Shown here one piece after another: positions 1 to 58,095 of a stretch of DNA of 58,095 nucleotides (position 1 is the stretch's first letter; the number at the start of each line of letters is the position of its first letter). Below the pieces are notes generated by a model. It did not search any database. It was not told the origin of the DNA and saw nothing but the letters and a program-made list of their open reading frames with translations. The translations under genes were made by a program, and so were the position numbers. The stretch comes from a virus: positions 1 to 58,095 of the IMG/VR virus record IMGVR_UViG_3300037454_000132; one strand, given 5' to 3'.

Positions 1-127
1 GCGTCTTGAGGCCGCACATTCCGCGTCCGAGGACGCGACGGTGCAGAGCTGATGGACGCAACGGGAAAACCGAAAATCGACTTTTCCCAGATGGGCGAAG
101 CCGACAAGCGAAATCTCTGTACCACGT
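1..127. repeat. Terminal overlap, identical to 57969-58095
   Basis: Read directly: gcgtcttgaggccgcacattccgcg...ctctgtaccacgt occurs at both ends. This indicates circular closure or terminal redundancy. Confidence 0.95.
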
Positions 128-237
128 GTATTGAAGCTGTGAAACGGTTTTACGATGATCCGACAAACCGTGACCGCTTTGAACGCTGGTTACAGACGCG
201 GCGACAGACCCGCACGGTTGCCGCACAACACATCTGA
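52..237 (+). CDS. Hypothetical small protein (61 aa)
   Basis: Its ATG overlaps the stop of the Cro-like ORF (ATGA, seen at 58018-58023 in the end copy). No family recognised. Confidence 0.6.
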   Translation: MDATGKPKIDFSQMGEADKRNLCTTCIEAVKRFYDDPTNRDRFERWLQTRRQTRTVAAQHI

Positions 238-264
238 TCGAAAAACGAAATGGAGGCAAAAGCA

Positions 265-738
265 ATGACCGAAATCAAGATCACTCACGTTATCGACTTG
301 ACCCCCGCGCTGGCCGACGCGCTCAAGGCGCTCACGAGCGCCCTGACGGGCCGCATGGCGGCTCCTGTGCCGGATGGTAAGATCATCAACCTGCCTACGG
401 AAAAGCCCGTAGAAACGCCTGTGACGGCTCCTGCGCCGGTGGTAAACCCTATTCCCGCTCCGGCCCCGGCTCCTGTGGCGGCTCCTGCCCCTACTGTGGA
501 AGCCCCTACCCCTGCCCCTGCGCCGGTTGAGGCCCCGGCTCCCGCTCCCGCGCCCACCGAAAAGGTTTATTCCTTTGCGGATATTTCCGCCGCTGGCTCC
601 GCGTTGCTGGAACAGAACAAGATGCCGCAGCTTATGGCCCTGCTTGCGCAGTTCGGCGTTCAGGCCGTGACGCAGCTCAAGCCGGAACAGTACGCCGGTG
701 TCGCCGCTGGCCTGAGAGAGCTGGGCGCGAACATCTGA
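265..738 (+). CDS. Hypothetical protein with a Pro/Ala-rich central linker
   Basis: ORF 250..738. GGAGG lies 8 nt before ATG265. A PAPAPVVNPIPAPAPAPVAAPAP tract sits between ordered N- and C-terminal segments. Confidence 0.65.
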   Translation: MTEIKITHVIDLTPALADALKALTSALTGRMAAPVPDGKIINLPTEKPVETPVTAPAPVVNPIPAPAPAPVAAPAPTVEAPTPAPAPVEAPAPAPAPTEKVYSFADISAAGSALLEQNKMPQLMALLAQFGVQAVTQLKPEQYAGVAAGLRELGANI

Positions 739-753
739 CAGGAGGTACAGACG

Positions 754-1971
754 ATGGCAACACCGAATGCACACGCGATAGTTACCGCGTCGGGCTTTGA
801 ACGGTGGTCACACTGTACCGCAGCTCCCCGGTTTGAAGAACAGTTCCCGGACGGATCGTCTGTCTACGCTGACGAGGGGACGCTTGCCCATGCGGTTTGT
901 GAGCTACACGGAAGAAAGAAGTTCACCGTAATGACAAAGCGGAAGTTCAACGCCGACCTGAAAAAGCTCACGGCAAATGAGCTGTGGTCTGAGGAAATGT
1001 TGAAAACCGCAGCGTTCTACGTGGATTTCCTGACCGAGAAAGCGAACGAGTTTCAGTCTATGCCGCAGGTGTTCTTTGAGACGCGCGTAGACCTGACCGA
1101 GTACATCCCGGAGGGTTTCGGGACGTGTGACTGCATCATGGCCGGGGACGACGTTCTGCGGATCACCGACTACAAGCACGGCAAGGGAGTTCCCGTCAGC
1201 TCCGTCAACAACGGGCAGATGCGGCTTTACGCTCTGGGCGCTCTCAAGTACCTCTACCCGATTTACGGGGACACGATCAAGCGGGTTTGCACCGCGATTG
1301 TCCAGCCCCGGATCACGGAGGACGTGACTGAGGAATGGCTCACCGTGGACGAGCTGAAAGCATGGGGCGAAATGGTCAAGCCGAAAGCACAGGCCGCGTT
1401 TTTCGGAATGGGGACGTTTGAGCCGGGTGATTGGTGTCGTTTCTGCAAGGGCAAGGCACAGTGCCGCGCCCGTGCCGAATACAACGCCGGGTTTGAACAG
1501 TTCGCCAACAAAGCCCCGGCCAACGCGCCCACCGTCAAGCCCGGAAAAGACCCCTGCCTGAGCGACGCCGAAGTTGCCGACCTGCTGACCCGCGCCGCTG
1601 GCCTTGTGAGCTGGTATGAGGATTTGCAGTCCTACGCGACTGAGGCGATCCTTGCGGGGCGTGAAGTCCCCGGCTACAAGGTCATTGAGGGGCAGCGCAA
1701 GCGGGTGTTCACCGACAACGACAAAGCCCTTGAGAAGATGCACGAACAGGGTTACGACGATGCGATCCTGTTTGAGCGGACGCAGAAAAGCCTTGCGGAA
1801 ATGGAAAAGCTCACCGGCAAAAAGGTATTTGCTGAGATCATGGGCGACCTGATTACGTGGACTAAGGGCAAGCCGAAGCTGGTTGTTTCCACCGCGAAAG
1901 GCGACCCCTACAAGACCGCAGGGCCGGAAGAATTTGCGGGTGTGACCGATGGAAAAAGCTCTGACAATTAA
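754..1971 (+). CDS. PD-(D/E)XK (Cas4-like) nuclease, DUF2800-type
   Basis: Motifs: ITDYKHGKG (D-x-K) and a C-terminal Cys cluster WCRFCKGKAQC plus an N-terminal Cys. It sits in the classic DUF2800-DUF2815-PolA cluster. GGAGG is upstream. Confidence 0.85.
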   Translation: MATPNAHAIVTASGFERWSHCTAAPRFEEQFPDGSSVYADEGTLAHAVCELHGRKKFTVMTKRKFNADLKKLTANELWSEEMLKTAAFYVDFLTEKANEFQSMPQVFFETRVDLTEYIPEGFGTCDCIMAGDDVLRITDYKHGKGVPVSSVNNGQMRLYALGALKYLYPIYGDTIKRVCTAIVQPRITEDVTEEWLTVDELKAWGEMVKPKAQAAFFGMGTFEPGDWCRFCKGKAQCRARAEYNAGFEQFANKAPANAPTVKPGKDPCLSDAEVADLLTRAAGLVSWYEDLQSYATEAILAGREVPGYKVIEGQRKRVFTDNDKALEKMHEQGYDDAILFERTQKSLAEMEKLTGKKVFAEIMGDLITWTKGKPKLVVSTAKGDPYKTAGPEEFAGVTDGKSSDN

Positions 1972-2374
1972 ATGCTTTGACGCCTGTGTGTACAACCTGA
2001 TTTTCCCGGCATGGTTTCTGCAAGCTACACAGGCGCAGAGCAAAAAGATGTTCAAGTGGCTGTTTCAGTTCGGTTTCCACCGTGAGAATCAGGAGGCAAT
2101 CGCTTTTCTGTCTGACGCGCTCCCGGCGCTGATTGAGGACACAAAAGCGGACTGGGACAAGAGCTTGTCAGATTATGAATCCGGCAAGCTCTCCCTTGAC
2201 AAGAAATCTCTCCCGGCTGAGTGGTCAGGCAAGCGGAAAGTAGCTGAGATCAAGAAACGCCGGGAGGATAACGCGGCTCTTTTACGAGCTACAAAAGTCG
2301 CAGAGACTACACACAAGAGATCACTGAAACTGCTTGAACAGTTCGATGAAACAAAGTCCGAGTGGTTTCGCTGA
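1949..2374 (+). CDS. Hypothetical protein (141 aa; start uncertain)
   Basis: An ORF between the nuclease and the SSB-like gene. An alternative ATG lies further downstream in the same frame (MFKWLF). Confidence 0.5.
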   Translation: MEKALTIKCFDACVYNLIFPAWFLQATQAQSKKMFKWLFQFGFHRENQEAIAFLSDALPALIEDTKADWDKSLSDYESGKLSLDKKSLPAEWSGKRKVAEIKKRREDNAALLRATKVAETTHKRSLKLLEQFDETKSEWFR

Positions 2375-2412
2375 TAAATCGAAACGCGAAAAGCGAAAAG
2401 GAGAATAAGAAA

Positions 2413-3036
2413 ATGTACATGAATCAAGCCAACAAGTCCCTGACCGGCGAAGTTCGCCTGTCCTACGTCCATCTGGCCGCGCCCTACGCTATGCCGGGTC
2501 AGCCCAACGCGGAGCCGAAGTACAGCGTGACGCTGCTGATCCCCAAGAGCGACACGGCGACCAAGGCCGACCTTGACAACGCCGTTGCCGCCGCGACCCT
2601 TGCCGCCGTGGACAAGACGTGGAAAGGCGTTCGCCCTCCGATCATCCCCAACCCCATTCACGACGGCGACGGTGTGCGTCAGGACGGTACGCCCTACGGC
2701 CCGGAGTGCAAGGGAATGTGGGTTATGACCGCCTCCCGCCGCGCGCAGGACGGCAGACCGTGGGTTTGCGAAATCTCCAACCCCAATGTCGAGCTTGCCC
2801 CGCAGGACAGCTACAGCGGTATGTACGCGCGCTGCACCGTTCATTTTTTCGGCTATTCCAACGCCGGGAAAAAGGGTATCGGCTGCTCCATCGACGGCGT
2901 GATGAAAACCCGCGACGGTGAATCTCTGGGCGGCGCGGTCAAGCCCTCCGCCAATGAGTTTGCGCAGTTCGCCGGGGCGGTTGATCCGATCACCGGTCAG
3001 CCGCGTATCAACCCGATCACCGGACAGCCCATGTGA
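2413..3036 (+). CDS. DUF2815-type phage ssDNA-binding-like protein
   Basis: N-terminus MYMNQANKSLTGEVRLSYVHLAAPYA is typical of DUF2815. AAGGAG lies upstream of ATG2413. Confidence 0.8.
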   Translation: MYMNQANKSLTGEVRLSYVHLAAPYAMPGQPNAEPKYSVTLLIPKSDTATKADLDNAVAAATLAAVDKTWKGVRPPIIPNPIHDGDGVRQDGTPYGPECKGMWVMTASRRAQDGRPWVCEISNPNVELAPQDSYSGMYARCTVHFFGYSNAGKKGIGCSIDGVMKTRDGESLGGAVKPSANEFAQFAGAVDPITGQPRINPITGQPM

Positions 3037-3228
3037 AACGAGTAAAGGCCGCTAAGGGGGAGTGTATCAACATGATCCAATATCACGATTCGCCATAAGC
3101 GGCCTTTCTCATAACCGGCAGTTCCTCCCAGACTGCAAGGGGCTACGGCTGAATCTGAAAGGCCGTGGCCGGTGTCAGGGAAAGCCCCTACCGCAGCACC
3201 GGCCTTTCTCTATAAAGGAGGCTACACC

Positions 3229-5244
3229 ATGCACAAGCTGAGTATCGACCTTGAAACGTACTCAAGCATTCCCATAGGCAAGGCCGGAGCTTTCCGGTAC
3301 GTGGACAGCGACGATTTTGAAATCCTGCTGTTCGCCTATTCTCTGGACAATGGCCCGGTTACGGTAATCGACGTGGCAAGCGGTGAGACTGTCCCGGAGT
3401 GGCTTATCAAGGCTCTGCATGATCCTGACTACCTGAAATACGCCTACAACGCAGCGTTTGAATGGGCCTGTCTCTCCAAGGTCTACGGGGCCATGATCCC
3501 GGAACAGTGGCGCGACACGATGTTACACGGGCTTTACGCGGGGTACACCGCAGGTTTGGAAGCGACGGGACGCGCGCTGGGCTTGCCGGAGGACAAGCAA
3601 AAGCTGAATACTGGCAAGGCTCTGATCCGTTATTTCTGCGTCCCCTGCCGCCCCACAAAGGCAAACGGACAGCGGACACGCAACTATCCGAAACATGATC
3701 CCGAAAAGTGGCGGCTGTTCCGAGAGTACAACGCGCAGGACGTGGTTACGGAAATGGAAATCGCGTCAAGGCTGGCGGCGTTCCCTGTTCCTGACTTTGT
3801 GCAGAAACAATGGGAAACCGACCTGAGAATCAATGCGCGGGGCGTTTTCGTGGATATGGAGTTCACGCGCGCGGCGCTCTACGTCGGTGATGTGGTCAAG
3901 AACGAGCTGACCGCTGAGGCAATCCGCATATCCGGCCTTGATAATCCGAACAGCATAAAGCAGCTCACGGAATGGCTGAACGGAGAGGCCGTCATAGAGT
4001 TTGATTCCGAAACGAATACCTATGTTGAGATCAAGAATCTCCGAAAAGAAACCGTGAGTGACCTGCTGGCAAAAGAGCATATCAAAGGTGACACACGCAG
4101 GATGCTTGAAATCCGGCAAGAGCTGGGAAAAACGTCTACGAAGAAATATGAGGCCATTGAGAATTGCGTTTGCGACGATGGCCGGGTACGCGGACTGTTG
4201 CAGTTCTACGGCGCAAACCGCACGGGGCGCTGGGCGGGGCGTCTGGTACAGGTGCAAAACCTCCCCCGGACGTACACGGAGCCGATTGACCTTGCGCGTG
4301 ACTTTGTGCGAGGCCGGAAAAAGGATCATCTGAGAGCGTTCTACGGCAACGTGCCTGATACCCTGTCGCAGCTCATACGGACGGCGTTCATAGCTACACC
4401 GGGCAACGTCCTTATCGACGCGGACTTTTCCGCAATCGAGGCGCGCGTTATCGCGTGGCTGTCCGGGGAACAGTGGGTGCTTGACGCTTTCAAGGCCGGG
4501 AAAGATATTTACTGCGAAACGGCAAGTCAGATGTTCAAAGTCCCGGTTGTCAAGGGCGGTGAAAACGGGCATCTGCGGCAGCGCGGCAAAGTGGCTGTGC
4601 TGGCCTGTGGCTATCAGGGCGGCGTCGGAGCTATGCGCCGGATGGACACCGGACACCTGCTGGACGAAGCGTCAGACGACGAAGTGCAGGGCCTTGTGAA
4701 CGACTGGCGGAACGCAAACCCCCATACCGTGAACCTGTGGCATGACATAGAGGACGCGGCGGTGCAGGTGATCGCCTACGGCGGCTCTGAGCGGGTGCGT
4801 AGTCTGGTTTTGTCCCGTGAGTTTGACCTTATGCAAGGGACGCAGGTGTTCACGATCCAGTTACCGTCCGGGCGCAAGCTCTACTACATCAACCCTACAC
4901 TGACGGAAAACCGCTGGGGCAATCCGTCAATCGCCTACTACGGCGTGGATCAGACAAGCAAGAAGTGGAAACAGATCGAAACCTACGGCGGCAAGCTCAC
5001 GGAAAACTGTGTGCAAGCAATCGCCCGTGACTGTCTGGCGGAGGCCATTGAGCATCTTGAGGCGGCGGGGCTTCCCATCGTGTTCCACGTCCACGACGAA
5101 GTTGTGATAGATACCCCGGCCTTTGACACCGACAAGGCCATGTTGGAAAAGGTCAAGACCATAATGACGACCCCCATTCCGTGGGCGCAGGGCCTACCGC
5201 TGGGCGCTGACGGCTGGGTAGGGACGTTCTTCAAGAAAGACTGA
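3229..5244 (+). CDS. Family A DNA polymerase with 3'-5' exonuclease domain
   Basis: Exo I: SIDLETYS. Pol motif A: DADFSAIEARV. Motif B: RQRGKVAVLACGYQGG. Motif C: VHDEVV. AAGGAGG lies before ATG3229. Confidence 0.9.
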   Translation: MHKLSIDLETYSSIPIGKAGAFRYVDSDDFEILLFAYSLDNGPVTVIDVASGETVPEWLIKALHDPDYLKYAYNAAFEWACLSKVYGAMIPEQWRDTMLHGLYAGYTAGLEATGRALGLPEDKQKLNTGKALIRYFCVPCRPTKANGQRTRNYPKHDPEKWRLFREYNAQDVVTEMEIASRLAAFPVPDFVQKQWETDLRINARGVFVDMEFTRAALYVGDVVKNELTAEAIRISGLDNPNSIKQLTEWLNGEAVIEFDSETNTYVEIKNLRKETVSDLLAKEHIKGDTRRMLEIRQELGKTSTKKYEAIENCVCDDGRVRGLLQFYGANRTGRWAGRLVQVQNLPRTYTEPIDLARDFVRGRKKDHLRAFYGNVPDTLSQLIRTAFIATPGNVLIDADFSAIEARVIAWLSGEQWVLDAFKAGKDIYCETASQMFKVPVVKGGENGHLRQRGKVAVLACGYQGGVGAMRRMDTGHLLDEASDDEVQGLVNDWRNANPHTVNLWHDIEDAAVQVIAYGGSERVRSLVLSREFDLMQGTQVFTIQLPSGRKLYYINPTLTENRWGNPSIAYYGVDQTSKKWKQIETYGGKLTENCVQAIARDCLAEAIEHLEAAGLPIVFHVHDEVVIDTPAFDTDKAMLEKVKTIMTTPIPWAQGLPLGADGWVGTFFKKD

Positions 5245-5255: not shown

Positions 5256-5918
5256 ATGCGAAAAGCGATTTGTATTGTGATAGCTCTGCTGGCTGCGTTC
5301 ATGCTGGGCGGAGCTATGGGACACAGCTTGACCGGAGAGGCCGACGCTGCGGTTGCCGTGGCGGAAGTCAGAGCGGAGGCCCCGGCAGAGCTGCGGGTAG
5401 TTGTTCCGGTTGATCCGCCTGTGGTGATCCCGCATGAGCCGGAGCCGGAGCCGGTAGAGCTTGAGCCGGAGGCAGACGCTACACAGGACGAAACCCCGGA
5501 ACCGGAAATCCCCGACCTTGCGTCCGCCTACGATATTGAGCTGATCGCCCGTACCATCTGGGGCGAGGCGGAGATCGTCAAGAGCCGTGCGGAGCAAGCC
5601 GCCGTCGCATGGTGTGTGCTGAATCGGGTAGACCTCTACGAAAAGCCCATTGCGGAAATCGTACTGGCCCCGTATCAGTTTGCGCCGCGTCTGAGGGGCG
5701 ACGTTCCCGACTACTTTATTGAGCTGGCGGAGGACGTTGTTTATCGCTGGGAATGCGAAAAGGCCGGTATTGAGGATGTGGGCCGGACGCTCCCCGCCGA
5801 ATACACGTTCTTTGTGGGCGACGGACGCCGCAATCATTTCTCCATCGTCTGGAAAAGCACCATCTACTGGGATTGGTCATTGCCTGATCCCTACACACAA
5901 GAAGAACAGGAGGCATGA
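5256..5918 (+). CDS. SleB-family cell wall hydrolase with N-terminal signal/TM segment
   Basis: IARTIWGEAE...AAVAWCVLNRV...PYQFA resembles the Hydrolase_2 (SleB) domain. The N-terminus is hydrophobic (AICIVIALLAAFMLGGA). Confidence 0.7.
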   Translation: MRKAICIVIALLAAFMLGGAMGHSLTGEADAAVAVAEVRAEAPAELRVVVPVDPPVVIPHEPEPEPVELEPEADATQDETPEPEIPDLASAYDIELIARTIWGEAEIVKSRAEQAAVAWCVLNRVDLYEKPIAEIVLAPYQFAPRLRGDVPDYFIELAEDVVYRWECEKAGIEDVGRTLPAEYTFFVGDGRRNHFSIVWKSTIYWDWSLPDPYTQEEQEA

Positions 5919-5922: not shown

Positions 5923-6096
5923 ATGAAAAAGAATCCGGGCAGACGGGAGCGCCGGGATCAGTATTTCAAGAATCGGCGCGCGGACGGCAAGCGCAGAATG
6001 AAGCTGCACAACTACTATATGTCTCATTCGTGGTTGCCGAAGTTTCAGAAGTTCCGTGAGGAAGTGGATGCGCGGGAGGCGGCAAAGAGAGCATGA
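5923..6096 (+). CDS. Hypothetical basic protein (57 aa)
   Basis: An internal ATG of ORF 5719..6096 lying just after the previous stop. Its stop overlaps the thyX ATG (ATGA). Confidence 0.5.
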   Translation: MKKNPGRRERRDQYFKNRRADGKRRMKLHNYYMSHSWLPKFQKFREEVDAREAAKRA

Positions 6097-6728
6097 AGAT
6101 CATCAAACCTGCTGTCGAGTTCATCACGCCGGTTGACGGCGACGTGATCCTCTCCCGGATCGAGGAATGCGGGAGAGTGTGCTACAAGTCCGAGGATAAG
6201 ATCACCGCAGGAAGCGCCGAAAAGTTTTGCCGGGGGATCATCCAGCGCGGACACGAGGCAGTCCTTGAGCATTGTTCCTTTACGCTCAAGTTCATCTGTG
6301 ACCGGGGCGTTACGCATGAGATCGTCCGTCACCGGCTGGCGTCCTACTGTCAGGAAAGCACCCGGTACTGCAACTACTCTAAAGGGCAGTTTGGGGCTGA
6401 AATCACGGTCATAGAGCCGCTTTACCTGACGCCGGGTACTGCGGTATACGACACGTGGAAAAAGGCGTGTGAGGCCGCTGAGAGCGCCTATTTTGAGCTG
6501 TTGAATTGGGGATGCACCCCGCAGGAGGCGCGCGCGGTACTCCCGAACAGTCTGAAAGCCGAAATCTGCATGACCGCGAACATCCGCGAGTGGCGACACT
6601 TTTTCCGGCTGCGCTGCTCACGGGGCGCACACCCGCAGATGAAAGAGGTTGCGCAACAGGCCCTTATCATGTGTTGTGCGGCTGTTCCGGTGCTGTTCGA
6701 GGACGTGTACGCGGAGGTATTCAAATGA
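6093..6728 (+). CDS. thyX: FAD-dependent thymidylate synthase ThyX
   Basis: ThyX signature RHRLASYCQES (RHRxxS) plus REWRHFFRLR. Confidence 0.9.
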   Translation: MKIIKPAVEFITPVDGDVILSRIEECGRVCYKSEDKITAGSAEKFCRGIIQRGHEAVLEHCSFTLKFICDRGVTHEIVRHRLASYCQESTRYCNYSKGQFGAEITVIEPLYLTPGTAVYDTWKKACEAAESAYFELLNWGCTPQEARAVLPNSLKAEICMTANIREWRHFFRLRCSRGAHPQMKEVAQQALIMCCAAVPVLFEDVYAEVFK

Positions 6729-6892
6729 TCCTGAAAACCGTGATCGCCCCCGTTCTGCTTATGGTGCTGGGAACAATCTGCTTTCTGGCCTGTCTGGGCG
6801 AGAGAAAAGAGGAAAACAAGGCCGTTTACATGGTGTTCTCTGTCGCCCTGTTTATCCTGCTGCTGTTCAGCCTGAGCGGTATCGGAAAATGA
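6725..6892 (+). CDS. Small two-TM membrane protein (55 aa)
   Basis: ATGA overlaps at both ends. Sequence: MILKTVIAPVLLMVLGTICFLA...VALFILLLFSL. Confidence 0.55.
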   Translation: MILKTVIAPVLLMVLGTICFLACLGERKEENKAVYMVFSVALFILLLFSLSGIGK

Positions 6893-7563
6893 ACGTACTT
6901 GTCGCCTGTGAGGAAAGTCAGGCAGTCACGATAGAGCTACACAGGCTGGGACACAATGCCTTTAGCTGCGACGTGCTGCCGTGTTCGGGCGGACACCCGG
7001 AATGGCATATTCAAGGCGACGTGCTACCCCTTATCAATGGAAACTGCGACTTTATGACCATGACGGGGGGGGAGTACCAGATCAACAACTCTTGGGATAT
7101 GCTGATCGCTTTTCCACCCTGCACCTATTTATCCAACGCCGGAGCTTGCCGGTTGTACCCGAAAAAAGGTCAGCTTGATATGGAGCGGTATCAAAAAGGC
7201 TTAGAGGGTAAAGCGTTCTTTATGAAGTTCCTGAATGCCGATTGTCCCCGGATCGCCGTTGAAAACCCTGTCTCAAGCAAGGTCTTTCAGATGCCGCCCC
7301 ATACTCAGGAAATCCAACCGTGGATGTTCGGCCACCCGGTCACAAAGAAAACCCGGCTGTGGCTGCGCGGACTACCACCGCTGAACGCTACACAGATTGT
7401 ACAACCGACAGCACCGTATGTTCCCGCTGGTACTGGCCGGAAAGACCCGTCAAAGTACGGCAAGGCCAAACGCGGCGAGGACGCAAAGAACAGAGCGAAA
7501 ACATTTCCCGGTATCGCACGGGCTATGGCCGAACAGTGGGCCGGGATCGCAAAGGAGAATTGA
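6889..7563 (+). CDS. Short C5-cytosine-methyltransferase-like protein (no obvious SAM motif I)
   Basis: FPPCTYLSNAG (PC motif), AVENPVS (ENV-like) and TFPGIARAMAEQW are present. The N-terminus MNVLVACEESQ replaces FxGxG. Confidence 0.55.
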   Translation: MNVLVACEESQAVTIELHRLGHNAFSCDVLPCSGGHPEWHIQGDVLPLINGNCDFMTMTGGEYQINNSWDMLIAFPPCTYLSNAGACRLYPKKGQLDMERYQKGLEGKAFFMKFLNADCPRIAVENPVSSKVFQMPPHTQEIQPWMFGHPVTKKTRLWLRGLPPLNATQIVQPTAPYVPAGTGRKDPSKYGKAKRGEDAKNRAKTFPGIARAMAEQWAGIAKEN

Positions 7564-7957: not shown

Positions 7958-8323
7958 ATGAACAGACCTGAAATCCTTGACGCCGCGAAGAAATGCGTTT
8001 GCGGCAAACGTGAACAGGACTACGGAAGCCCTGAAAACAATTTCGGCCTTATCGGTATGCTCTGGACGACCTATACCGGCACGATGATAACCGCGACGGA
8101 CGTTGCAATGATGATGGCCCTTTTCAAGATCGCCCGGATCAAGACCGGCACCGCGACAGAGGACAGTTTCGTAGACCTTGCCGGGTACGCGGCTTGCGGC
8201 GGCGAAATCGCTACACAGCGAGTAGCGAAACCTGCGACGGAAAACCGTTGCGTCTGCTGCGGTGAGATCATACCAGAGGGCCGTCACGTCTGCCCCCGCT
8301 GTGAGGCCGGGAAAGGCGGCTGA
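7958..8323 (+). CDS. Phage protein, DUF6378-like, with C-terminal zinc ribbon
   Basis: KREQDYGSPENNFGLIG...ALFKIARIKTG resembles DUF6378 (recalled from memory). The zinc ribbon is CVCCGEIIPEGRHVCPRC. Confidence 0.55.
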   Translation: MNRPEILDAAKKCVCGKREQDYGSPENNFGLIGMLWTTYTGTMITATDVAMMMALFKIARIKTGTATEDSFVDLAGYAACGGEIATQRVAKPATENRCVCCGEIIPEGRHVCPRCEAGKGG

Positions 8324-8646: not shown

Positions 8647-9007
8647 TCGAAACAGGCAGCTACACAAGCAGGAGGCAGAGGCGGCGGCGCTGACCCCGGC
8701 ACAGCGCCGCGCTATGAAAAAGGAGATCAACGCGCAAATCTTGGAGAGCGACACCGCGTATAAGCTGGACATGGACGCCGCCGTTCTCTACGTCCTGCAT
8801 GAGACGTTCGGGTTTGGTAAGAAGCGTCTGAGGCGTTTCTTTGACGCTTTTACCGCCCAGCATCAAGAGCTGCGAGACTACTACCAACTTGACGACGACA
8901 CCAACACGTGGATATGCCGTCGATTGCTGAAAGAGCGTGTGGGTGTGGATATTGAAGCATGGGAAAAGGAGTTTACGGAACATGGAAAAGAAGCCGCTGA
9001 CGCTTAA
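8633..9007 (+). CDS. Hypothetical protein (124 aa)
   Basis: Internal ATG of ORF 8606..9007 (MGKGNRNRQ). It overlaps the neighbouring genes in operon fashion. Confidence 0.55.
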   Translation: MGKGNRNRQLHKQEAEAAALTPAQRRAMKKEINAQILESDTAYKLDMDAAVLYVLHETFGFGKKRLRRFFDAFTAQHQELRDYYQLDDDTNTWICRRLLKERVGVDIEAWEKEFTEHGKEAADA

Positions 9008-9431: not shown

Positions 9432-9433
9432 CT

Positions 9434-9646: not shown

Positions 9647-9685
9647 AAAACTACACACAGGGCAAAATAAAGTTGACTGTGCCGG

Positions 9686-9714: not shown

Positions 9715-9755
9715 CAAAGTCAGTCAAACAATTCAAGCTGTAGAGAGGGTGCAAC

Positions 9756-47334: not shown

Positions 47335-47376
47335 AAAACGACAACCGAAACGCGACACGCGAAAGGAGATAACACG

Positions 47377-48984: not shown

Positions 48985-49004
48985 AACTACACACAGTAAA
49001 GATA

Positions 49005-49038
49005 TTTTGACCGGTCAATCGTGGCCGGTCAAAAATTT
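49005..49038. terminator. Bidirectional-looking terminator hairpin
   Basis: TTTTGACCGG-10 nt-CCGGTCAAAA followed by ATTT. Confidence 0.55.
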
Positions 49039-49050
49039 CTTACAAAATAT

Positions 49051-49115
49051 AGTCAAAAGGTGTTGACAAGTCTATGTTCGTTTGCTATACTGTGCATAGT
49101 CAAAAATCATTGACT
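49051..49115 (+). promoter_or_regulatory. Early promoter with two flanking operators (paralog of 47270-47334)
   Basis: AGTCAA-N6-TTGACA (49051-49068), 17 nt, TATACT at 49086-49091, then AGTCAA-N6-TTGACT at 49098-49115. Confidence 0.75.
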
Positions 49116-49155
49116 GAACACGATAAGCGACAAGCGAAAAACGGAGGTACGCGAA

Positions 49156-50351: not shown

Positions 50352-51263
50352 ATGACGTATTACGAGATCAATGAGAACGCCGCGCGCAGGGCAAAGGAAA
50401 TGAACAGCTTTTCCGATTACCGGGAGGGCGAAGCTACACAGGAATACAGGCGGATGGTGGACAAGGCTGTGCAGATCGCAGAACGGCAGAAGTCCCGCGT
50501 CGATTCCATGTACCATGAGAAGATTGACCGGCTGCTGGACACCTACGCCCGGAAGCTGGCCGACAACCTGAATCACCGCTACGAGATTGACGCTCGTGTT
50601 CCGTCCGTGATGATCGCTGGCCCCGCAAACTTTCCCGTCCGCAAGAAAGAAAAGCAGAATGCAGCGCGGGACACCAATGATGCGGAGTACCGGGAGATTC
50701 AGGAGATTCTTTCCCGGATTCAGAGTTGCGGCATGGGCGGCATTATGAGCGACGACGAGAACGCCCTTGCGAAGCTCCGGGCGAAGCTCAAGGCCCTTGA
50801 GGGCTTGCAGGAACACATGAAAGCGGCGAACGCCTACTACCGGAAGCACGGGACGCTTGACGGATGCCCGGAGGCGTCTGACGAGGTAAGGCGTCAGATG
50901 GAAGCGGATCACCTGACCGCTCCGAAAAATCAGCCGTACCCCGGCTGGGCGCTGTCGAACAACAACGCGAACATTCACCGCGTCCGGGATCGGATCGCCG
51001 CGCTTGAGAAAGAGGCGGCGAGAGCTGCGGAACAGGCCGACGCTGCCCCGGAACAGGGCGACGGCTACATTCTCAAGGAAAACTTTGAGCTGTGCCGGAT
51101 TCAGTTCATCTTTGACGGCAAGCCGGACGACGATACCCGCGCCCTGCTCAAGTCCTACGGTTTTCGCTGGTCGCCGTCTCAGGGCGCATGGCAGAGGATG
51201 TTGAATGACAACGGGCGGTATGCGGCTGAGAGGATCAAGGAAAGGCTGGCCGCGAATGGCTGA
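50352..51263 (+). CDS. DUF3560-like protein
   Basis: The C-terminal CRIQFIFDGKPDDDTRALLKSYGFRWSPSQGAWQR resembles DUF3560 proteins of conjugative elements and phages (recalled from memory). Confidence 0.55.
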   Translation: MTYYEINENAARRAKEMNSFSDYREGEATQEYRRMVDKAVQIAERQKSRVDSMYHEKIDRLLDTYARKLADNLNHRYEIDARVPSVMIAGPANFPVRKKEKQNAARDTNDAEYREIQEILSRIQSCGMGGIMSDDENALAKLRAKLKALEGLQEHMKAANAYYRKHGTLDGCPEASDEVRRQMEADHLTAPKNQPYPGWALSNNNANIHRVRDRIAALEKEAARAAEQADAAPEQGDGYILKENFELCRIQFIFDGKPDDDTRALLKSYGFRWSPSQGAWQRMLNDNGRYAAERIKERLAANG

Positions 51264-51432: not shown

Positions 51433-51459
51433 CGCTACACAAGAAGAAAGGAAAAAACC

Positions 51460-51882: not shown

Positions 51883-51918
51883 CTGGAACGCTACACCAAA
51901 GGACGGAGGTAAAAGGGG

Positions 51919-52098
51919 ATGGAAAACGTATTCGGGGGCGCGGCTGTGCTGTGCATCTATCTTGGGCCGCTGCTGTTGGCACTGGCCGTAGGCGGGTTTA
52001 TTTCGGACGTACTTTTGCCGCGCTGCCCGTTCCTGCTCCGTCTGCTGGAACGGCTGACCGGCGTAGATTTAGGAGGTAATGACTATGAGGACGATTGA
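51919..52098 (+). CDS. Small membrane protein (59 aa)
   Basis: GGAGG lies 9 nt before ATG51919 (MENVFGGAAVLCIYLGPLLLALAVGGFI). Preferred over the Arg-rich ORF 51879..52079. Confidence 0.45.
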   Translation: MENVFGGAAVLCIYLGPLLLALAVGGFISDVLLPRCPFLLRLLERLTGVDLGGNDYEDD

Positions 52099-53134
52099 TA
52101 GGTTTCTGGGCTGTCTGGTGGGTGGCGCGCTGGGGGACGCTCTGGGCTACCCCGTCGAGTTTATGAGCATGAATGACATATGCCGCATCTACGGCCACCG
52201 GGGGATCAGGGAGCCGCTTGTAAACCGGCTGGACAAGACCGCGCATATCTCCGACGACACGCAAATGACCTTGTTCACGGCGAATGGGCTTTTGCTGGCG
52301 CACAACGATGGGCTTGATCTTACTGACGCCCTATGGATCGCGTATCAGCGGTGGTATTACACTCAGACGATGCGGTGTGAGAACATCGAGTATACGATCC
52401 GCCGCGCCGGTGATCCACTTCCGTACATTCTGGATCAACACGCACTTCACGCTTGCCGCGCTCCCGGTACTACCTGTCTGACGGAGCTTGGCAACGGACA
52501 CCGGGGCGCTCCCGGCAAGAATCTGAATGACCGTAAGGGCTGTGGCGGCGTCATGCGTGTTGCGCCCTGTGGTCTGTTCTTTGCGGAGGAACCGGACGTT
52601 GCGTGTCTGGCAGCGGTCAAGGCCGCAGCTCTGACGCACGGCCACCCGACAGGCTACACGGCGGCGGGGGCGTTTGCGTACATGATCGCCCGGATTGTGA
52701 AAGACGGGATTTCCATTCGGGCGGCGGCGGAGGCGGCTATGCAGCTTGTCCCGGCTATCTCCGACAACACGGAAACGGCTGAGGCAATCGAAATGGCCCT
52801 GTTCTATGCGGAACAGGACACCTACCCGCAGAAAGCTATAAACGTGCTGGGCGAGGGCTGGACGGCTGAGGAAGCCCTTGCAATCGGCCTGTACTGCGCT
52901 CTGAGAGGTAAGACCACAAAGGAAGCCCTGATACTTGCCGTCAATCACAAGGGCGACAGCGACAGCACAGGCGCGATTTGCGGCAATATCGTAGGCGCGT
53001 ACTACGGCTATGACGCGCTTCCGGCTGACTGGATCAAGGCGCTTGAGCTTGAGGGTTTTATCCGCGTGACGGCCTTTGAGCTTTACAACAACAGCGACAG
53101 CAAAAGAAAGGAGTACAAGGATGCTGAAAAGTGA
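52085..53134 (+). CDS. ADP-ribosylglycohydrolase (ARH/DraG family)
   Basis: GGALGDALGYPVEF, HISDDTQMT, GCGGVMRVAP, HGHPTGY, GDSDSTGAICGNIVGAYYG. An alternative ATG is at 52079. Confidence 0.85.
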   Translation: MRTIDRFLGCLVGGALGDALGYPVEFMSMNDICRIYGHRGIREPLVNRLDKTAHISDDTQMTLFTANGLLLAHNDGLDLTDALWIAYQRWYYTQTMRCENIEYTIRRAGDPLPYILDQHALHACRAPGTTCLTELGNGHRGAPGKNLNDRKGCGGVMRVAPCGLFFAEEPDVACLAAVKAAALTHGHPTGYTAAGAFAYMIARIVKDGISIRAAAEAAMQLVPAISDNTETAEAIEMALFYAEQDTYPQKAINVLGEGWTAEEALAIGLYCALRGKTTKEALILAVNHKGDSDSTGAICGNIVGAYYGYDALPADWIKALELEGFIRVTAFELYNNSDSKRKEYKDAEK

Positions 53135-53704: not shown

Positions 53705-53738
53705 AAAACTACACACAAAGAAAACGGAGGTAAGAAAA

Positions 53739-54527: not shown

Positions 54528-54541
54528 AATCCGCGCCCCTT
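54521..54541 (+). promoter_or_regulatory. GC hairpin downstream of VR2
   Basis: CCGCGCCC-cttgt-GGGCGCGG. The core sequence is the same as at 41859-41877. Confidence 0.7.
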
Positions 54542-54580
54542 GTGGGCGCGGCTACACAGCGAGAAAGGAGAATGCGAAAG

Positions 54581-54721: not shown

Positions 54722-55112
54722 CGGGTATTCCCTCTGTCACGACAACTGCCCGAAGAAAGGCGACTGCTACGACGGCGCTGATTGCGCGGAGGTATTGACC
54801 GCGCGTCTGGGCGGATATGAGGACGCTGAGGAAGCCGGACGCCTTTTGCTCCTGCCCTGCAAGGTAGGTGATACCGTTATGGCCTACCTTGAGGACGCTC
54901 CGAAGAAAGGCCGCAACGTCTATCACCTGAGCGAATGCAGGATTACGGAGATTACTATTTCCGCCGACTACCCGGAGCCGTACTTTACGGCTGTCAGCAA
55001 GATCAAGGCGCTGTTTGACCGGTTTTGGCTGAGTGACTTCAACAAGGAAATCTTCACGCTGGATCAATACTGGGCGCGGGTGGACGCTACACGGGAGAAA
55101 AGCAATGCCTAA
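54693..55112 (+). CDS. Hypothetical protein (139 aa)
   Basis: AGGAG lies upstream. Clean ORF. Confidence 0.6.
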   Translation: MKRLTMKNGDGYSLCHDNCPKKGDCYDGADCAEVLTARLGGYEDAEEAGRLLLLPCKVGDTVMAYLEDAPKKGRNVYHLSECRITEITISADYPEPYFTAVSKIKALFDRFWLSDFNKEIFTLDQYWARVDATREKSNA

Positions 55113-55359: not shown

Positions 55360-55365
55360 GTTTCT

Positions 55366-55398
55366 GCAAGTTACCGGCAAGTTACAAGCAAGTTAAAA
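55366..55398. repeat. Three tandem 11-bp repeats (GCAAGTTAnnn)
   Basis: gcaagttaccg, gcaagttacaa and gcaagttaaaa starting at 55366, 55377 and 55388, between convergent gene ends next to the integrase. Confidence 0.85.
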
Positions 55399-55429
55399 TG
55401 CCCCGGAGGATTTACCTCCGAGGCATTTT
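55395..55429. terminator. Bidirectional terminator hairpin between convergent genes
   Basis: AAAATGCC-CCGGAGG-attta-CCTCCG-AGGCATTTT. It overlaps the last integrase codons. Confidence 0.65.
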
Positions 55430-57019
55430 CAGTATGAGCGCAAATACGTTCCCGTAAAAAACGAGTTCGTATGCGCGCGTTATGGTGGAGCATTGCGCGC
55501 GGCATCCGAACACCCCGGCCTTGCGTAACCGATCAAAGTCTGTGAATCGTACTTGTGCTTTGTCCCCGCCGAAATTGAAATTGATGGTCATTTCATCGTC
55601 GGTGATGTAGATGGAGTTCACAAACACGTCTACGAGCCGTTTTTGCCATGCTCTGTCCTTAAAGTCAGCTTCCCGGAATTGCAGTAGGAAAAACTCAATA
55701 TGCTCCCGCGTCAGATGAAAGCCGCCGTCGAGCTGCGTTTCAGCGATAGCCTTTGAAAGAGCTGTCCGCTGGGCGTCCAGCTCCGATAGGCGGCTTTTTG
55801 TTATATCCGTAAAGGGCAGACCGTTTTCTACGGCGCGGATCAGGTTGTTCATTGCCGTTTCCGTTTCGTGTAGCTGTGCTTCCAGCCCCTTGACCTTTTC
55901 CCGCCGCTGATCCTCCGCGAGATAGAACGCCCACACGCTGTCCGTTATAAACTGGATCGCTTCATCGTCCATGACCAGACCTTGCACCTGATCCATAACG
56001 TAGTCCTCAATCCAGTCCTGCCGGATCGCTTTTCGGGCGCAGCTTTTCCCGCGCTTATGGTTTGCGCAAAGGTAGTAGTTGTACTTTGCCCCGGTCTTGC
56101 TTGTACCGCTCTCTCCGACCATCTGAGCGCCGCAGGAGCCGCAGAACAGCTTGTCGGTAAGAAGATAGTCCGCCTTGCTCCAACGGGCCGCAGGAGCGCG
56201 TTGATTGACCTGTAGGAGCTTTTGCACTTTGTAGAACGTGTCTTTATCCACGATTGCCGGTACAAGCCCCTCCGTTCGGATTTCCCCGCCCTTGAAGCTG
56301 TAAATCCCGATGTACTTTTCATTCGACAAGACGGTACGCAGACTGTTCTTTGTGAACGGTTTGCCTTGGCTTGTGTGTAGTCCCTCCGCGTTGAGCTGAT
56401 TGATTATTTCGGTGATCGTCCACCCCTCCGCGTACATGGAATAGATGCGGCTGACGAGCGGGGCGCTGTCAGGGTCTATCACAAATTTGTGTTCCGGGGA
56501 GAGTTTGTAACCGAGCGGAACGCGCCCACCCGTGAATTGTCCTTTTTTGGCTGCTTCCCGGTTGCCGCGCTTGATGTTTTGGGAAAGCTGCAAGGAGTAG
56601 TATTCGGCCATACCCTCAAGGACACTCTCAAGGATCACACCCTCCGGGCCGTCCGGCATCGTCTCAGCGACATACTCTACCCGGACGCCGTGTTTTCGGC
56701 ACCGGTATTTGTTGAACGTGATTTCCTCCCGGTTGCGCCCGAAGCGGTCAACTTTCCAGACGATAATGACCTGAAATTGCTTTTTAGCACAGTCCGAAAG
56801 CATCTGCTGAAAATCGTCCCGGTTGTCGTTCCTCCCGGTCATAGCCCTGTCAATGTATTCGTGTATGATCGTGTAGCCTCTGGCCTCTGCATACTTTCGC
56901 GCTGCTGCAAGCTGCCCCTCTATAGACTGTTCGCCCTGACTGTGCGAGGAATACCGGGCATAAACGACGGCGTTCTTTCCGCCTTTGTCGAGGCCGTTAT
57001 AGTTTATCTGGACGCTCAT
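55412..57019 (-). CDS. Large serine recombinase (integrase)
   Basis: N-terminal resolvase motif VVYARYSSHSQ. Recombinase domain. Zinc ribbon CGSCGAQM...YYLCANHKRGKSC. GAGGGGG lies before ATG57019. Confidence 0.9.
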   Translation of the reverse strand: MSVQINYNGLDKGGKNAVVYARYSSHSQGEQSIEGQLAAARKYAEARGYTIIHEYIDRAMTGRNDNRDDFQQMLSDCAKKQFQVIIVWKVDRFGRNREEITFNKYRCRKHGVRVEYVAETMPDGPEGVILESVLEGMAEYYSLQLSQNIKRGNREAAKKGQFTGGRVPLGYKLSPEHKFVIDPDSAPLVSRIYSMYAEGWTITEIINQLNAEGLHTSQGKPFTKNSLRTVLSNEKYIGIYSFKGGEIRTEGLVPAIVDKDTFYKVQKLLQVNQRAPAARWSKADYLLTDKLFCGSCGAQMVGESGTSKTGAKYNYYLCANHKRGKSCARKAIRQDWIEDYVMDQVQGLVMDDEAIQFITDSVWAFYLAEDQRREKVKGLEAQLHETETAMNNLIRAVENGLPFTDITKSRLSELDAQRTALSKAIAETQLDGGFHLTREHIEFFLLQFREADFKDRAWQKRLVDVFVNSIYITDDEMTINFNFGGDKAQVRFTDFDRLRKAGVFGCRAQCSTITRAYELVFYGNVFALILKMPRR

Positions 57020-57070
57020 TGTTCGCCCCCTCAAAGAATAGGTAGATCACTTTGCCGCGTCGGATCGCTC

Positions 57071-57541
57071 TCACGCCTGTTTTTTCCTATCGGCCTGTTC
57101 TGCGTATTTTTCCTGCGACAAAAGCCCTTGCGCGAAGCCCTCCAACTTGCCCTTGTCTGTGTCGTCCAGCCGGTTATAAAGGGAGAGTATCAGCGGTGTA
57201 GCGTTGCGCTCCCGCCGCACGTCGTTTTCAACTGCGCGCTGGAACGCGACGGCCTTTTTCACGTCCCCGTCAAAGGCGTCGAGCTGTGGCCCCGCGAGTT
57301 CGGCCAAAAGGTCAGGGTTTGTGTAATCGGTAGGATCGTCCGTGCGCCCCAAAAGGTAGTCCGTCGAGACGCCGTACACGTCTGCAATCGCAGCGAGATA
57401 TTCCCCTTTAGGCGCTCTGTCGTTCGCTTTCCATGAGGAAATAGTACCCCGGTTTGTACCGAGGGCTTGCGCGGCTTGCTCTGACACCGGCTTGTAGCCG
57501 CGCGCAAGACACAATTTTTCGTACCGGTCAAAAAAGGTCAT
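57071..57541 (-). CDS. XRE/CI-type repressor
   Basis: HTH region SEQAAQALGTNRGTISSWKANDRAPKGEYLAAIADVYGVSTDYLLG. Divergent from the Cro-like gene. The longer ORF to 57610 would overlap the promoter. Confidence 0.85.
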   Translation of the reverse strand: MTFFDRYEKLCLARGYKPVSEQAAQALGTNRGTISSWKANDRAPKGEYLAAIADVYGVSTDYLLGRTDDPTDYTNPDLLAELAGPQLDAFDGDVKKAVAFQRAVENDVRRERNATPLILSLYNRLDDTDKGKLEGFAQGLLSQEKYAEQADRKKQA

Positions 57542-57581
57542 CTTGTTTTGTCCTTTCTGCCAGTACGAAAATTTTTTCTGA

Positions 57582-57656
57582 AAAATAGTCAAAGTGTATT
57601 GACAAGTCAAAATTCATAGACTATAATTACTGCGTAGCAGTCAAGAAACGTGGACT
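57582..57656. promoter_or_regulatory. Genetic switch: rightward early promoter with operators, and a divergent repressor promoter
   Basis: AGTCAA-N6-TTGACA (57587-57604), 17 nt, TATAAT at 57622-57627, then AGTCAA-N6-TGGACT at 57639-57656. On the - strand, TTGACT-17 nt-TATTTT reads toward the repressor. Confidence 0.7.
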
Positions 57657-57795
57657 TGCAAGGAAACCCCGCCGAGTTGTGGAAGATGGAGCGGCGTTCC
57701 GAAAGAGCGTACTGACACAGACAGTATAGCGCATTAGTCAAAGATTTTCAACTGCTATTTGTAAATTTTCATCATTGGAGAAAGGGAGTGAGAAA

Positions 57796-58020
57796 GTGCC
57801 GGAGAATTGGACTGCCGAGGTCGTAGGGCGTATGCACGTCGCCCGGATCACGCAAAGGGCGCTGGCTAAGGAATGCGGGTATTCCGAAGCATACGTTTCC
57901 GAAGTCCTGAACAGCAGACGTGACAAGGGCAGCGAACAGACGAAAGTGAACATCTACGCCGCTCTTGAGCGTCTTGAGGCCGCACATTCCGCGTCCGAGG
58001 ACGCGACGGTGCAGAGCTGA
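57796..58020 (+). CDS. Cro-like/XRE HTH protein
   Basis: ITQRALAKECGYSEAYVSEVLN. GGGAG lies 7 nt before GTG57796. The ORF track start at 57775 is TTG. Confidence 0.65.
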   Translation: MPENWTAEVVGRMHVARITQRALAKECGYSEAYVSEVLNSRRDKGSEQTKVNIYAALERLEAAHSASEDATVQS

Positions 58021-58095
58021 TGGACGCAACGGGAAAACCGAAAATCGACTTTTCCCAGATGGGCGAAGCCGACAAGCGAAATCTCTGTACCACGT
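57969..58095. repeat. Terminal overlap, identical to 1-127
   Basis: Read directly. See the feature at 1-127. Confidence 0.95.

Follow-up and report, generated by a model that had tools for sequence, protein, structure and literature searches.

The virus record IMGVR_UViG_3300037454_000132 was analysed over its whole stretch of 58,095 nucleotides (nt), referred to here as the window, with regard to the hexamer CTACAC, a word that recurs along this phage genome about once per kilobase and, with one exception, in the sense of transcription. The first 127 nt of the window were identical to positions 57969–58095, which shows the window to be a closed circular assembly 57,968 bp in length, and its GC content was 55.0%, not the roughly 58% assumed in an earlier note on this DNA that was made from the sequence alone. 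Genes of the early region specified a DUF2800 PD-(D/E)XK nuclease (754–1971), an Enc34-type single-strand binding protein (SSB; 2362–3036), a family A DNA polymerase (PolA; 3172–5244) and ThyX (6093–6728). Further genes were those for a DNA methyltransferase (6649–7563), an 815-aa primase-helicase (9756–12203, plus strand) with an AEP primase at residues 1 to about 380 and a fused VapE/SF3 helicase, a SNF2 ATPase (12947–14482), a small sigma-like regulator (14909–15388, plus strand; phrog_36, with weak matches to sigma-factor models), a DUF4417 protein (15716–16345, plus strand), a small terminase (GP3_package; 18944–19429, plus strand), and a large terminase (19419–20666) and portal (21750–23300), the last two identified via annotated homologues. 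The repressor gene (57071–57610) lay with the integrase gene in a minus-strand lysogeny block. The core shared by the Candidatus Heliusvirales comprises DUF2800, DUF2815, DNA polymerase I, SNF2 helicase, the large terminase and the portal, along with further genes such as those for VRR-NUC, Clp protease and capsid (PMC9226167). The check covered DUF2800, Enc34-type SSB, PolA, SNF2, large terminase and portal genes, all of which the window was found to carry. Judged by gene content, the window phage thus belongs to the Candidatus Heliusvirales lineage, i.e., the temperate gut phages of Clostridia described as Candidatus Heliusviridae or Heliusvirales (PMC9226167; PMC11283538), which were reported in >90% of people in the cohort of PMC9226167.

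An exact scan located 54 copies of CTACAC on the plus strand, the first at 904 and the last at 55087, and five copies of the reverse complement, GTGTAG, at 12198, 55868, 56375, 56871 and 57196. All positions listed in the earlier note proved right, as did its count of 54 and the flip in bias that it described for the integrase and repressor genes. Plus-strand copies preceded by G at position -1 were at 904–909, 2025–2030, 3222–3227 (with an AGGAGG resembling a ribosome-binding site before it and ATG after), 4394–4399, 5479–5484, 6937–6942, 7388–7393, 8211–8216, 8660–8665 (intergenic by our gene calls), 10355–10360, 10858–10863, 13365–13370, 16188–16193, 18525–18530, 21032–21037 (intergenic), 22325–22330 (position kept in 11 of 33 aligned relatives), 25240–25245, 27798–27803 (kept in 1 of 21), 29048–29053 (intergenic), 30421–30426, 31294–31299, 32869–32874, 34009–34014, 35562–35567, 38196–38201, 39575–39580 (between the ribosome-binding site and ATG of gene 39584), 41237–41242, 42213–42218, 43051–43056, 43842–43847, 45237–45242, 46235–46240, 48343–48348 (GGAG before, ATG after), 50434–50439, 51435–51440 (intergenic), 51891–51896, 52654–52659, 54552–54557 (immediately 3' of a GC-rich hairpin at 54531–54551) and 55087–55092, the final copy of the plus-strand series. 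Those preceded by A were at 2307–2312, 9651–9656, 11992–11997 (kept in 6 of 8 aligned relatives), 44432–44437, 46868–46873 (intergenic, a few nt before a terminator-like hairpin at about 46880–46915), 48987–48992 and 53709–53714 (intergenic), and those preceded by C were at 4895–4900, 5891–5896, 23569–23574 (kept in 7 of 10 aligned relatives), 26401–26406, 26593–26598, 36592–36597, 40280–40285 and 41801–41806.

In the minus-strand lysogeny block, the plus strand held four copies of GTGTAG and none of CTACAC. Each of these flipped copies was therefore on the minus strand and sense to its gene, three of them in the integrase gene (55868–55873, 56375–56380 and 56871–56876) and one in the repressor gene (57196–57201). 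The copy at 56375, about +660 nt from the integrase start, was common to several close relatives, and the copy at 57196, about -200 nt from the integrase start, was common to close relatives. The sole reversed copy in the plus-strand domain (12198–12203, minus strand) overlapped the TAG stop codon of the primase-helicase gene, 6 nt ahead of the first of two iteron clusters, and was not conserved in relatives L041 and L042. Thus, the polarity reported in the earlier note, by which the word follows the direction of transcription in this genome, held for 58 of 59 copies.

Abundance, spacing and sequence of CTACAC

The exact count against null models that had been proposed in the earlier note gave expectations far below the numbers observed. 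Markov models of orders 0–2 predicted 9–14 copies of CTACAC (standard deviation about 3) and 3–5 of GCTACAC. Within genes, 52 copies of CTACAC were observed vs 18.9 ± 3.4 expected from synonymous-codon shuffling within each gene and 13.9 ± 3.5 from codon permutation (i.e., 14–19 for codon shuffles), the corresponding values for GCTACAC being 38 observed vs 8.1 and 3.6, respectively. Since both codon-preserving shuffles fell short and all three codon phases were used (12, 24 and 16 copies), an artefact of codon or dipeptide usage, against which the earlier note had also argued, was ruled out. By order-2 expectation, CTACAC was the top over-represented hexamer of the window (z = 10.8). The seven-base form was skewed as well, with 39 copies of GCTACAC vs 3 of GTGTAGC. 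Strong strand skew was also noted in many other words of the window, the coding strand of which is purine-rich, so that skew alone is unremarkable and its combination with enrichment is what is special. GTGTAG was not depleted within the window alone (5 copies vs 3–7 expected).

The copies were spaced more evenly than by random placement. Thus, the mean gap was 1022 nt with a coefficient of variation (CV) of 0.52, compared with 0.98 ± 0.13 for random placement, and evenness of this degree was reached in none of 20,000 simulations; gaps ranged from 192 nt (the smallest gap under random placement being about 19 nt) to 2823 nt. Sense copies were intragenic in 51 cases and intergenic in 7 of 58, three being situated between a ribosome-binding site and a start codon. 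Intragenic copies were spread uniformly, their placement tracking distance rather than gene boundaries, and two tail genes of 4.2 kb and 4.8 kb held four and three copies, respectively. Copy positions were partly conserved among aligned relatives (compare 22325 and 27798 above), which indicates that density is maintained while individual copies turn over.

None of the 18 single-mismatch variants of the hexamer was enriched, indicating that all six bases are required. The preferred context was A-n-R-G-CTACAC-R-G. Among 386 non-redundant sites from the window and its relatives, position -1 was G in 74% and T in only 2%, A was favoured at -4 and -2, position +1 was a purine in 72% and position +2 was G in 52%; beyond these weak flanks, no conservation was seen to ±40 nt. 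A degenerate longer motif or a second element was therefore ruled out. The extended word ACAGCTACAC was found wherever the earlier note had placed it, although its list was incomplete, further occurrences being present at 21032, 22325 and 31294. Predicted RNA structure around copies differed only trivially from that around controls.

Distribution and orientation in related phages

Related loci consisted of 40 viral contigs reached via the large terminase, 54 viral and metagenome-assembled genome (MAG) loci reached via the integrase and 80 more reached via the primase domain. The comparison with related phages suggested in the earlier note revealed the same word, at the same density and with the same polarity, in one Heliusvirales clade. 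Relatives carried CTACAC at 0.5–1 copy per kb, on a single strand and evenly spaced, over a GC range of 41–59%; in one of them (L094), for example, GTGTAGC occurred 19 times vs 0 times in the reversed orientation (0.8 expected), with a CV of 0.34. Motif-positive phages were gut and rumen Candidatus Heliusvirales of several Clostridia host families, and motif-positive MAGs were assigned to Oscillospiraceae, Lachnospiraceae, Anaerovoracaceae, Coprococcus, Agathobacter and Eubacterium. The host flanks of six prophages, 56.7 kb in total, were not enriched (6 copies of CTACAC and 3 of GTGTAG vs 3.9 and 4.1 expected), which ruled out a host-wide signal at the power that about 57 kb of host flanks affords.

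The word was absent from more distant phages that share the polymerase module (Oscillospiraceae phage NatCom_27610, Fusobacterium phiPaco and Paenibacillus Pd_22F), from those with only the terminase in common (Dulem virus 35 and locus L027, which also lack the PolA module) and from those with only DUF4417 in common (Roseburia phage Jekyll and Christensenellales phage NatCom_6392). It was also absent from sister clades despite 62–64% identity of their polymerase and 58–59% identity of their primase to those of the window, i.e., proteins as close to the window's as in some positive clades, in which primase identity was 55–57%. A de novo scan for enriched, one-stranded and evenly spaced 5–7-mers recovered (G)CTACAC from positive controls and yielded no comparable word in 28 negative loci. 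The lack of a substitute word in negative loci indicates that the motif was gained in one clade and does not represent one state of a specificity that varies. Neighbour-joining trees of the primase domain, helicase domain, SNF2 and polymerase placed positive loci in essentially one clade, with 2–3 parsimony changes. The invariance of the word across hosts and 41–59% GC, together with its absence from flanks and sister clades, argues for a clade-specific reader and not a general host signal. No description of the motif was found in the literature searched for the word, DUF4417 and Heliusvirales, and none is mentioned in the papers on Heliusviridae and Heliusvirales (PMC9226167, PMC11283538). 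A decayed prophage remnant (L062/L089, 3600–12600) was noted in an Oscillospiraceae MAG, on a contig of 543 kb; integrase, nuclease and SSB genes remain in it along with an intact polymerase gene, and three reversed motif copies lie over and beyond the latter.

Strand in relatives was assigned from protein matches, as longest-ORF calling was unreliable at this GC. In genes outside the lysogeny block, 273 copies were sense and 10 antisense. When de-duplicated in-frame segments of these genes (449.5 kb) were compared with synonymous-codon shuffles of the same segments, sense copies numbered 224 vs 87.6 ± 8.2 expected and reversed copies 8 vs 34.1 ± 5.4 expected. The latter value, an approximately 4-fold depletion, indicates that the reversed orientation is actively avoided in the main body of the genome. 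Avoidance of this kind bears on another proposal of the earlier note, that the bias defeats Type III restriction. In a wider form of this explanation, the bias would serve only to evade restriction enzymes that need two inverted sites (Type III or Type ISP enzymes). An asymmetric six-base sequence such as CTACAC is the typical site format of these enzymes, and in phage T7 all EcoP15I sites, which are of this type, lie in one orientation, a bias that has been explained by evasion or by composition. Evasion could explain the 4-fold purge of reversed copies in the present phages, but it leaves unexplained the 3–4-fold enrichment over codon-preserving nulls and the even spacing, and type S genomes (defined below), the window included, hold inverted pairs at the boundaries of the flipped block. 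The EcoP15I bias of T7, moreover, is without even spacing, clade-wide conservation across GC or a flipped block, all three of which the present motif has. Enrichment and spacing thus largely refuted evasion of restriction as the whole explanation, and we regard it as very unlikely.

Across 33 clades, the antiparallel block of repressor and integrase genes occurred in two mutually exclusive states. In type S, which comprised the window and about 15 related clades, the block held sense copies only, at many independent positions (25 vs 9.2 expected, with reversed copies 0 vs 1.0 expected). In type A, which comprised about 14 other clades, copies in the block kept the strand of the genome-wide series. 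The block was therefore tagged in either direction depending on the clade and never in both. These genomes follow a rule of a single orientation within each domain: copies in the main body are always sense, and the lysogeny block (2.3 kb) either forms a flipped domain by itself or belongs to the main one. Type A relatives L064, L091–L094 and L097 were also found to carry, between an Xre-type repressor gene and the integrase gene (block at about 8900–11600), an extra gene for an ImmA/IrrE-type metallopeptidase (HEXXH motif AEELGHY) that the type S block of the window lacks.

The two domains of the window met head-to-head and tail-to-tail between the copies at 55087/55868 and 57196/904, respectively. 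Their divergence (57599–57751) coincided with a promoter region, in which a perfect TTGACA-17-TATAAT early promoter (57599–57627, plus strand) was accompanied by a promoter-like site on the minus strand (57751–57723). No copy of the motif was present from 57202 across the circular junction to 903, an interval that includes the repressor/cro promoter region. Convergence (55360–55425) was situated between the last plus-strand gene and the integrase stop codon, where three copies of GCAAGTTA at 11-nt spacing preceded a hairpin flanked by A- and T-runs. This hairpin (55399–55425) was read by eye as a putative two-way terminator and was absent from the terminator-scan output. The interval 55360–55425 is likely to be the attP neighbourhood; its GCAAGTTA repeats and hairpin could represent the neighbourhood of the attachment site or a protein-binding array. 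Terminator-like hairpins followed the late operon in both type S and type A, so that they did not separate the types, and four-fold-site skew, considered as a proxy of fork direction in the lysogeny block, was confounded by differences in GC and codon usage.

Arrangement of the copies around this convergence point is one argument for a Chi-like or KOPS-like polar word read by a DNA motor, i.e., a helicase-nuclease or a double-strand translocase of host or phage. The word would mark self or steer the motor, and the DUF2800 nuclease or SNF2 ATPase module would be the phage option. Copies in the window point to the integrase-side attachment region on the circle and would point outwards to both prophage ends in the integrated state. 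As in Chi (RecBCD/AddAB) and KOPS/SRS (FtsK/SpoIIIE), the word is short, exact, strongly skewed and over-represented, with coverage spacing and a purge of reversed copies; density seems to outweigh exact position in both cases, and KOPS also avoids the reversed orientation. Type S domains converge at 55.1–55.9 kb beside the integrase, and the phage encodes both a PD-(D/E)XK nuclease (DUF2800) and a SNF2 ATPase. However, Chi and KOPS are words of the host chromosome that switch at ori and ter, while the present word occurs in one phage clade and not in host flanks, is 5–10 times denser, is evenly spaced and switches at an operon boundary in half of the clades. The unenriched host flanks (about 57 kb examined) argue against a host Chi or KOPS, as does the use of one word across several host families; genes for the nuclease and the SNF2 ATPase are also present in motif-free sister clades, and type A genomes are without a convergence point. 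The Chi-like part of the earlier note's proposals thus fared poorly for the host, and a motor of any kind seems improbable.

Stoperator-like sites, also proposed in the earlier note, resemble the present copies in their anatomy. According to this explanation, the immunity repressor would bind the sites and block elongation in the lysogen. Stoperators of cluster A mycobacteriophages are asymmetric sites distributed across the genome, the orientation of which follows transcription and flips between oppositely transcribed arms (PMC9283540). The motif resembles these sites (i.e., the sites of L5 gp71) in its many asymmetric copies, its tie to transcription and the flip of a block, and both groups of phages carry DUF4417, which is gene 1 in cluster A. 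The likeness in orientation extends to the window and other type S genomes and is violated in type A. In contrast, stoperators are 13 nt in length, number about 20–30 per genome, lie mainly in short intergenic spaces, with one or more at the early lytic promoter as operator, and are bound by a monomeric repressor, whereas the motif has a core of 6–7 nt, occurs about once per kb, is mostly intragenic (51 of 58 copies), is missing from the repressor/cro promoter region and has sense copies within the repressor and integrase genes themselves. Stoperator sequences co-vary with repressor specificity. The present word, by comparison, was invariant among phages with repressors that were 30–73% identical to that of the window or of another type (ImmA/Xre-type blocks). 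These differences make repressor sites the least credible of the explanations considered here, and we hold them to be extremely unlikely.

Several features of the window and its relatives were noted apart from the motif. A diversity-generating retroelement at 40746–44087 consisted of a reverse transcriptase gene (42759–44087; RVT_1), a 135-nt variable repeat (41701–41835) at the 3' end of a DUF6273 tail gene and a template repeat (42400–42534) with 86% identity to the variable repeat. Two copies of an 88-nt cassette (47250–47337 and 49031–49118), 78% identical to each other, were situated upstream of small accessory genes, each with a near-perfect TTGACA-17-TATAAT promoter that has an extended -10 and is flanked by AGTCAAAAG-like words; similar TTTTGACT...TTGACTTGTCAA cassettes were seen in relatives L070–L072. 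Genes at 16389–17066, 17259–17888 and 52079–53134 encoded an ADP-ribosyltransferase (exoenzyme family), a papain-fold glutamine deamidase and an ADP-ribosylglycohydrolase, respectively, which may be host-modifying or counter-defence enzymes; the ADP-ribosyltransferase was present in only 1 of 19 related loci. The gene for a 1588-aa tail protein (36600–38900) contained collagen-like Gly-X-Y coding repeats of 9-nt period and repeats of 30-nt period.

Proteins that might read the word

The primase-helicase is the candidate for a reader associated with the replisome. An AlphaFold2 (AF2) model of residues 1–400 (pLDDT 87) was predicted to have an AEP primase fold, the top Foldseek match being the AEP domain of cyanophage S-2L PrimPol (E = 1.4e-6), followed by RepB', ASFV PrimPol and the LigD polymerase domain, and the C-terminal half matched the VapE-type helicase structure 7pds (E = 5e-71). 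In the corresponding explanation, GTGTAG(C) in the template would be recognised by this AEP primase-SF3 helicase, primers would begin at the purine immediately 5' of the template word, i.e., at the R and G of positions +1 and +2, and priming sites about 1 kb apart would set fragment size, whether in discontinuous synthesis or in fork re-priming along the lytic genes. In AEP-SF3 enzymes such as pRN1 ORF904 and NrS-1, synthesis requires 5'-GTG-3' in the template and begins immediately upstream of this triplet (PMC8718748). The architecture of these enzymes is the same as that predicted for the window enzyme, GTG forms the 5' end of the motif's reverse complement and a +1 purine was found in 72% of the sites. 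An exact short word with strict strandedness and even spacing of about 1 kb would also suit priming. The motif, furthermore, tracks the lineage of the replication module and not the terminase alone (e.g., Dulem virus 35 and L027), and type A genomes keep the genome-wide strand through their antiparallel lysogeny genes.

Known primase words, such as GTC for T7 gp4 and GTG for ORF904 and NrS-1, are likewise strand-specific, short and read on a single-stranded template. Unlike the present word, they are 3–4 nt long (a single word of 8 nt has been reported for NrS-1) and show no visible selection for density or spacing across the genome, and we know of no primase word that flips with an operon. 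The flip in type S (the window and about 15 clades) would require that the block be replicated in the opposite direction, but no origin-like repeats were found at the flip points. Nor did polarity change at either of two iteron clusters (12.2 kb and 47.0 kb). These clusters belong to two homologous non-coding elements of about 260 nt (12205–12470, directly after the primase-helicase stop codon, and 46945–47210), in each of which GGTCTACAAAGT iterons, both direct and inverted, precede conserved hairpins (GGCGGTAAAAyCCCGCC; TCAAAGCC..GGGTTT). Since the first element adjoins the primase-helicase gene, they are probably replication origins or a regulator-binding array. A purge of reversed copies is not an obvious prediction of priming, and sister clades in which the primase is 58–59% identical to that of the window have neither the motif nor a substitute. 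Thus, the primase part of the earlier note's proposal of a polar signal stands as a serious rival, though on balance it appears unlikely. Iteron words varied among relatives (GTCTACA, TGTAACA, TGTAATA, TTGTGAT and GTCAACA) whereas CTACAC was constant, by which the iteron-binding specificity of the helicase was ruled out as the reader.

Among gene families, window-type DUF4417 was the best marker of the motif-positive clade. Among loci that covered the interval from SNF2 to terminase, all 25 positive ones and none of the 29 negative ones had it, and the window-type small terminase was present in 13 positive and 0 negative loci and otherwise only in borderline loci. This pattern would suit a target of an enzyme of the packaging module (DUF4417 or small terminase), which would either nick or modify one strand, as in the interruptions of T5-like phages, or use the word as a dispersed packaging signal. 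Sister clades lack both genes as well as any comparable word, and nicks on opposite strands would select for sites on one strand and for avoidance of reversed copies. T5-type nick sites are physical interruptions of one strand at a consensus word in virion DNA, with which only the one-strand rule and the avoidance of reversed copies are compatible here. The association is confounded by common descent, because of which it does not identify the reader; DUF4417 homologues with 50–58% identity occur in the motif-free phages Jekyll and NatCom_6392; the DUF4417 AlphaFold model (pLDDT 86) had no confident neighbour in the PDB that would indicate a nuclease or modifying fold; and packaging is unidirectional, which leaves the flipped block unexplained. 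A packaging enzyme is thus a quite improbable reader, somewhat more so than a DNA motor, and DUF4417 alone was not supported in this role, as Jekyll and NatCom_6392 carry it without the motif and the fold search was uninformative. More distant DUF4417 homologues (35–39% identity) were found in mycobacteriophages (about 385 records, including gene 1 of L5 and D29), Gordonia phages and Streptococcus phages, those of the last group being annotated as ParB-like nuclease or methylase.

Other candidates were eliminated individually. The DNA methyltransferase (6649–7563) was ruled out by the lack of a homologue in related loci, and a phage small RNA bearing the GUGUAG at 12198 by the absence of that copy in L041 and L042. 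GUGUAGC lies in helix 23 of 16S rRNA, but pairing with 16S rRNA was ruled out, since the flanks add no complementarity past 7 nt and the type A blocks are at odds with any rule at the RNA level. Overall, the motif does not fit the definition of any named family with which it was compared. Polar, over-represented short words that are read by a directional machine are a kind of feature already known. The combination seen here is new to the literature searched, i.e., an exact hexamer evenly placed about once per kb, in one orientation per domain with reversed copies purged, invariant within a clade over 18 GC points and several host families, and absent from hosts and sister clades. There is a substantial chance that the reader and the mechanism are new as well.

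A proposed transcription-coupled sense tag

The explanation that we favour, tentatively and with less than even confidence, is that CTACAC acts as a "sense tag" coupled to transcription, to be recognised either in the non-template strand or in nascent RNA, and is thus a short polar signal under "coverage" selection. The clade would keep about one sense copy per kb in each transcription domain and remove reversed copies. The reader, which we take from the restriction of the word to one clade to be a phage-clade-specific factor riding with, or acting on, the polymerase or the transcript, would see the word either in the transcription bubble, as non-template DNA in single-stranded form, or as CUACAC in nascent RNA, and each copy would renew a state that decays with distance, e.g., termination resistance or transcript protection. 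Long sense transcripts of the 55-kb lytic array would thereby be favoured, unlike antisense transcripts, which are untagged. Of the mechanisms listed in the earlier note, an RNA-level signal seems to fit best in this broadened, transcription-level form.

A benefit to whichever transcript carries the tag predicts both sense enrichment and reversed depletion, since a tag that favours its own carrier must be denied to antisense transcripts. Transcription-coupled reading also predicts a flip exactly at operon boundaries, as in type S. Thus, the sense main body, the type S flip, the antisense purge and indifference to codon phase are covered naturally. The constant polarity at both iteron clusters likewise speaks for this explanation. 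Tagging of the lysogeny block in either direction but not both is easier to understand as alternative regulatory strategies than as the product of a single DNA-tracking process. Type A could be accommodated if late transcription runs antisense through the lysogeny genes, by which the tag would be denied to these genes during lytic growth.

Known systems of this general kind are ops with RfaH or LoaP and sigma-dependent pause elements, which are likewise polar and coupled to transcription, are read on the non-template strand and serve processivity or antitermination over long operons. In contrast with the present word, ops is about 12 nt in length and occurs once or a few times in operon leaders, while here the first copy is 0.6–2.1 kb past the promoters, and no NusG-family gene turned up among the 50 proteins scanned. 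We know of no ops/RfaH-type system with periodic copies every kb through coding sequence.

A number of observations weigh against a transcription-coupled tag. Among these are the lysogeny genes of type A clades, in which antisense copies were enriched (8 vs 2.0 expected) and sense copies depleted (1 vs 8.0 expected), the copies being in register with the genome-wide series and opposed to the transcription of the block itself. Some type A clades have hairpins with T-runs after the late operon, so that read-through into the lysogeny block would need antitermination. The first copy downstream of each strong promoter is 0.6–2.1 kb away, with none close behind the promoter; copies have no RNA-structure context; and exact six-base specificity is more typical of DNA-reading enzymes. 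The sigma-like regulator, the candidate reader under this explanation, was present in all 25 positive loci tested but also in 8 of 29 negative loci, and no KOW/NusG-like or known antiterminator domain was found in the 50 proteins compared with Pfam, PHROGs and NCBIfam, a set that does not include every small protein. Finally, the positive clade is monophyletic for backbone genes, and correlations with gene content cannot single out a transcription factor.

A more specific form of the sense tag, which we consider doubtful though possible, is that the hexamer belongs to a new phage system that discriminates the phage's own correctly oriented transcripts or polymerases. In such a system, tagged transcription would be kept going or tagged RNA kept intact, untagged host and antisense transcripts would be terminated or degraded, and the direction in which the lysogeny operon is tagged would be chosen for regulation, differently from clade to clade.

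The results describe a strict, genome-wide sequence grammar that is kept in one clade of common gut phages. Grammar of this type is confined to cases in which DNA or RNA is read directionally by a machine; an undiscovered reader is therefore implied, and the motif offers a precise means of finding it. The count of GCTACAC vs GTGTAGC is, in addition, a practical marker of clade membership, orientation and prophage boundaries in metagenomes. Whichever reading is true, the motif would represent a new mode of organisation for a one-way phage genome of 55 kb, be it by a tag on transcripts or polymerases, by a six-base primase word that sets fragment size or by a self-mark for a DNA motor.

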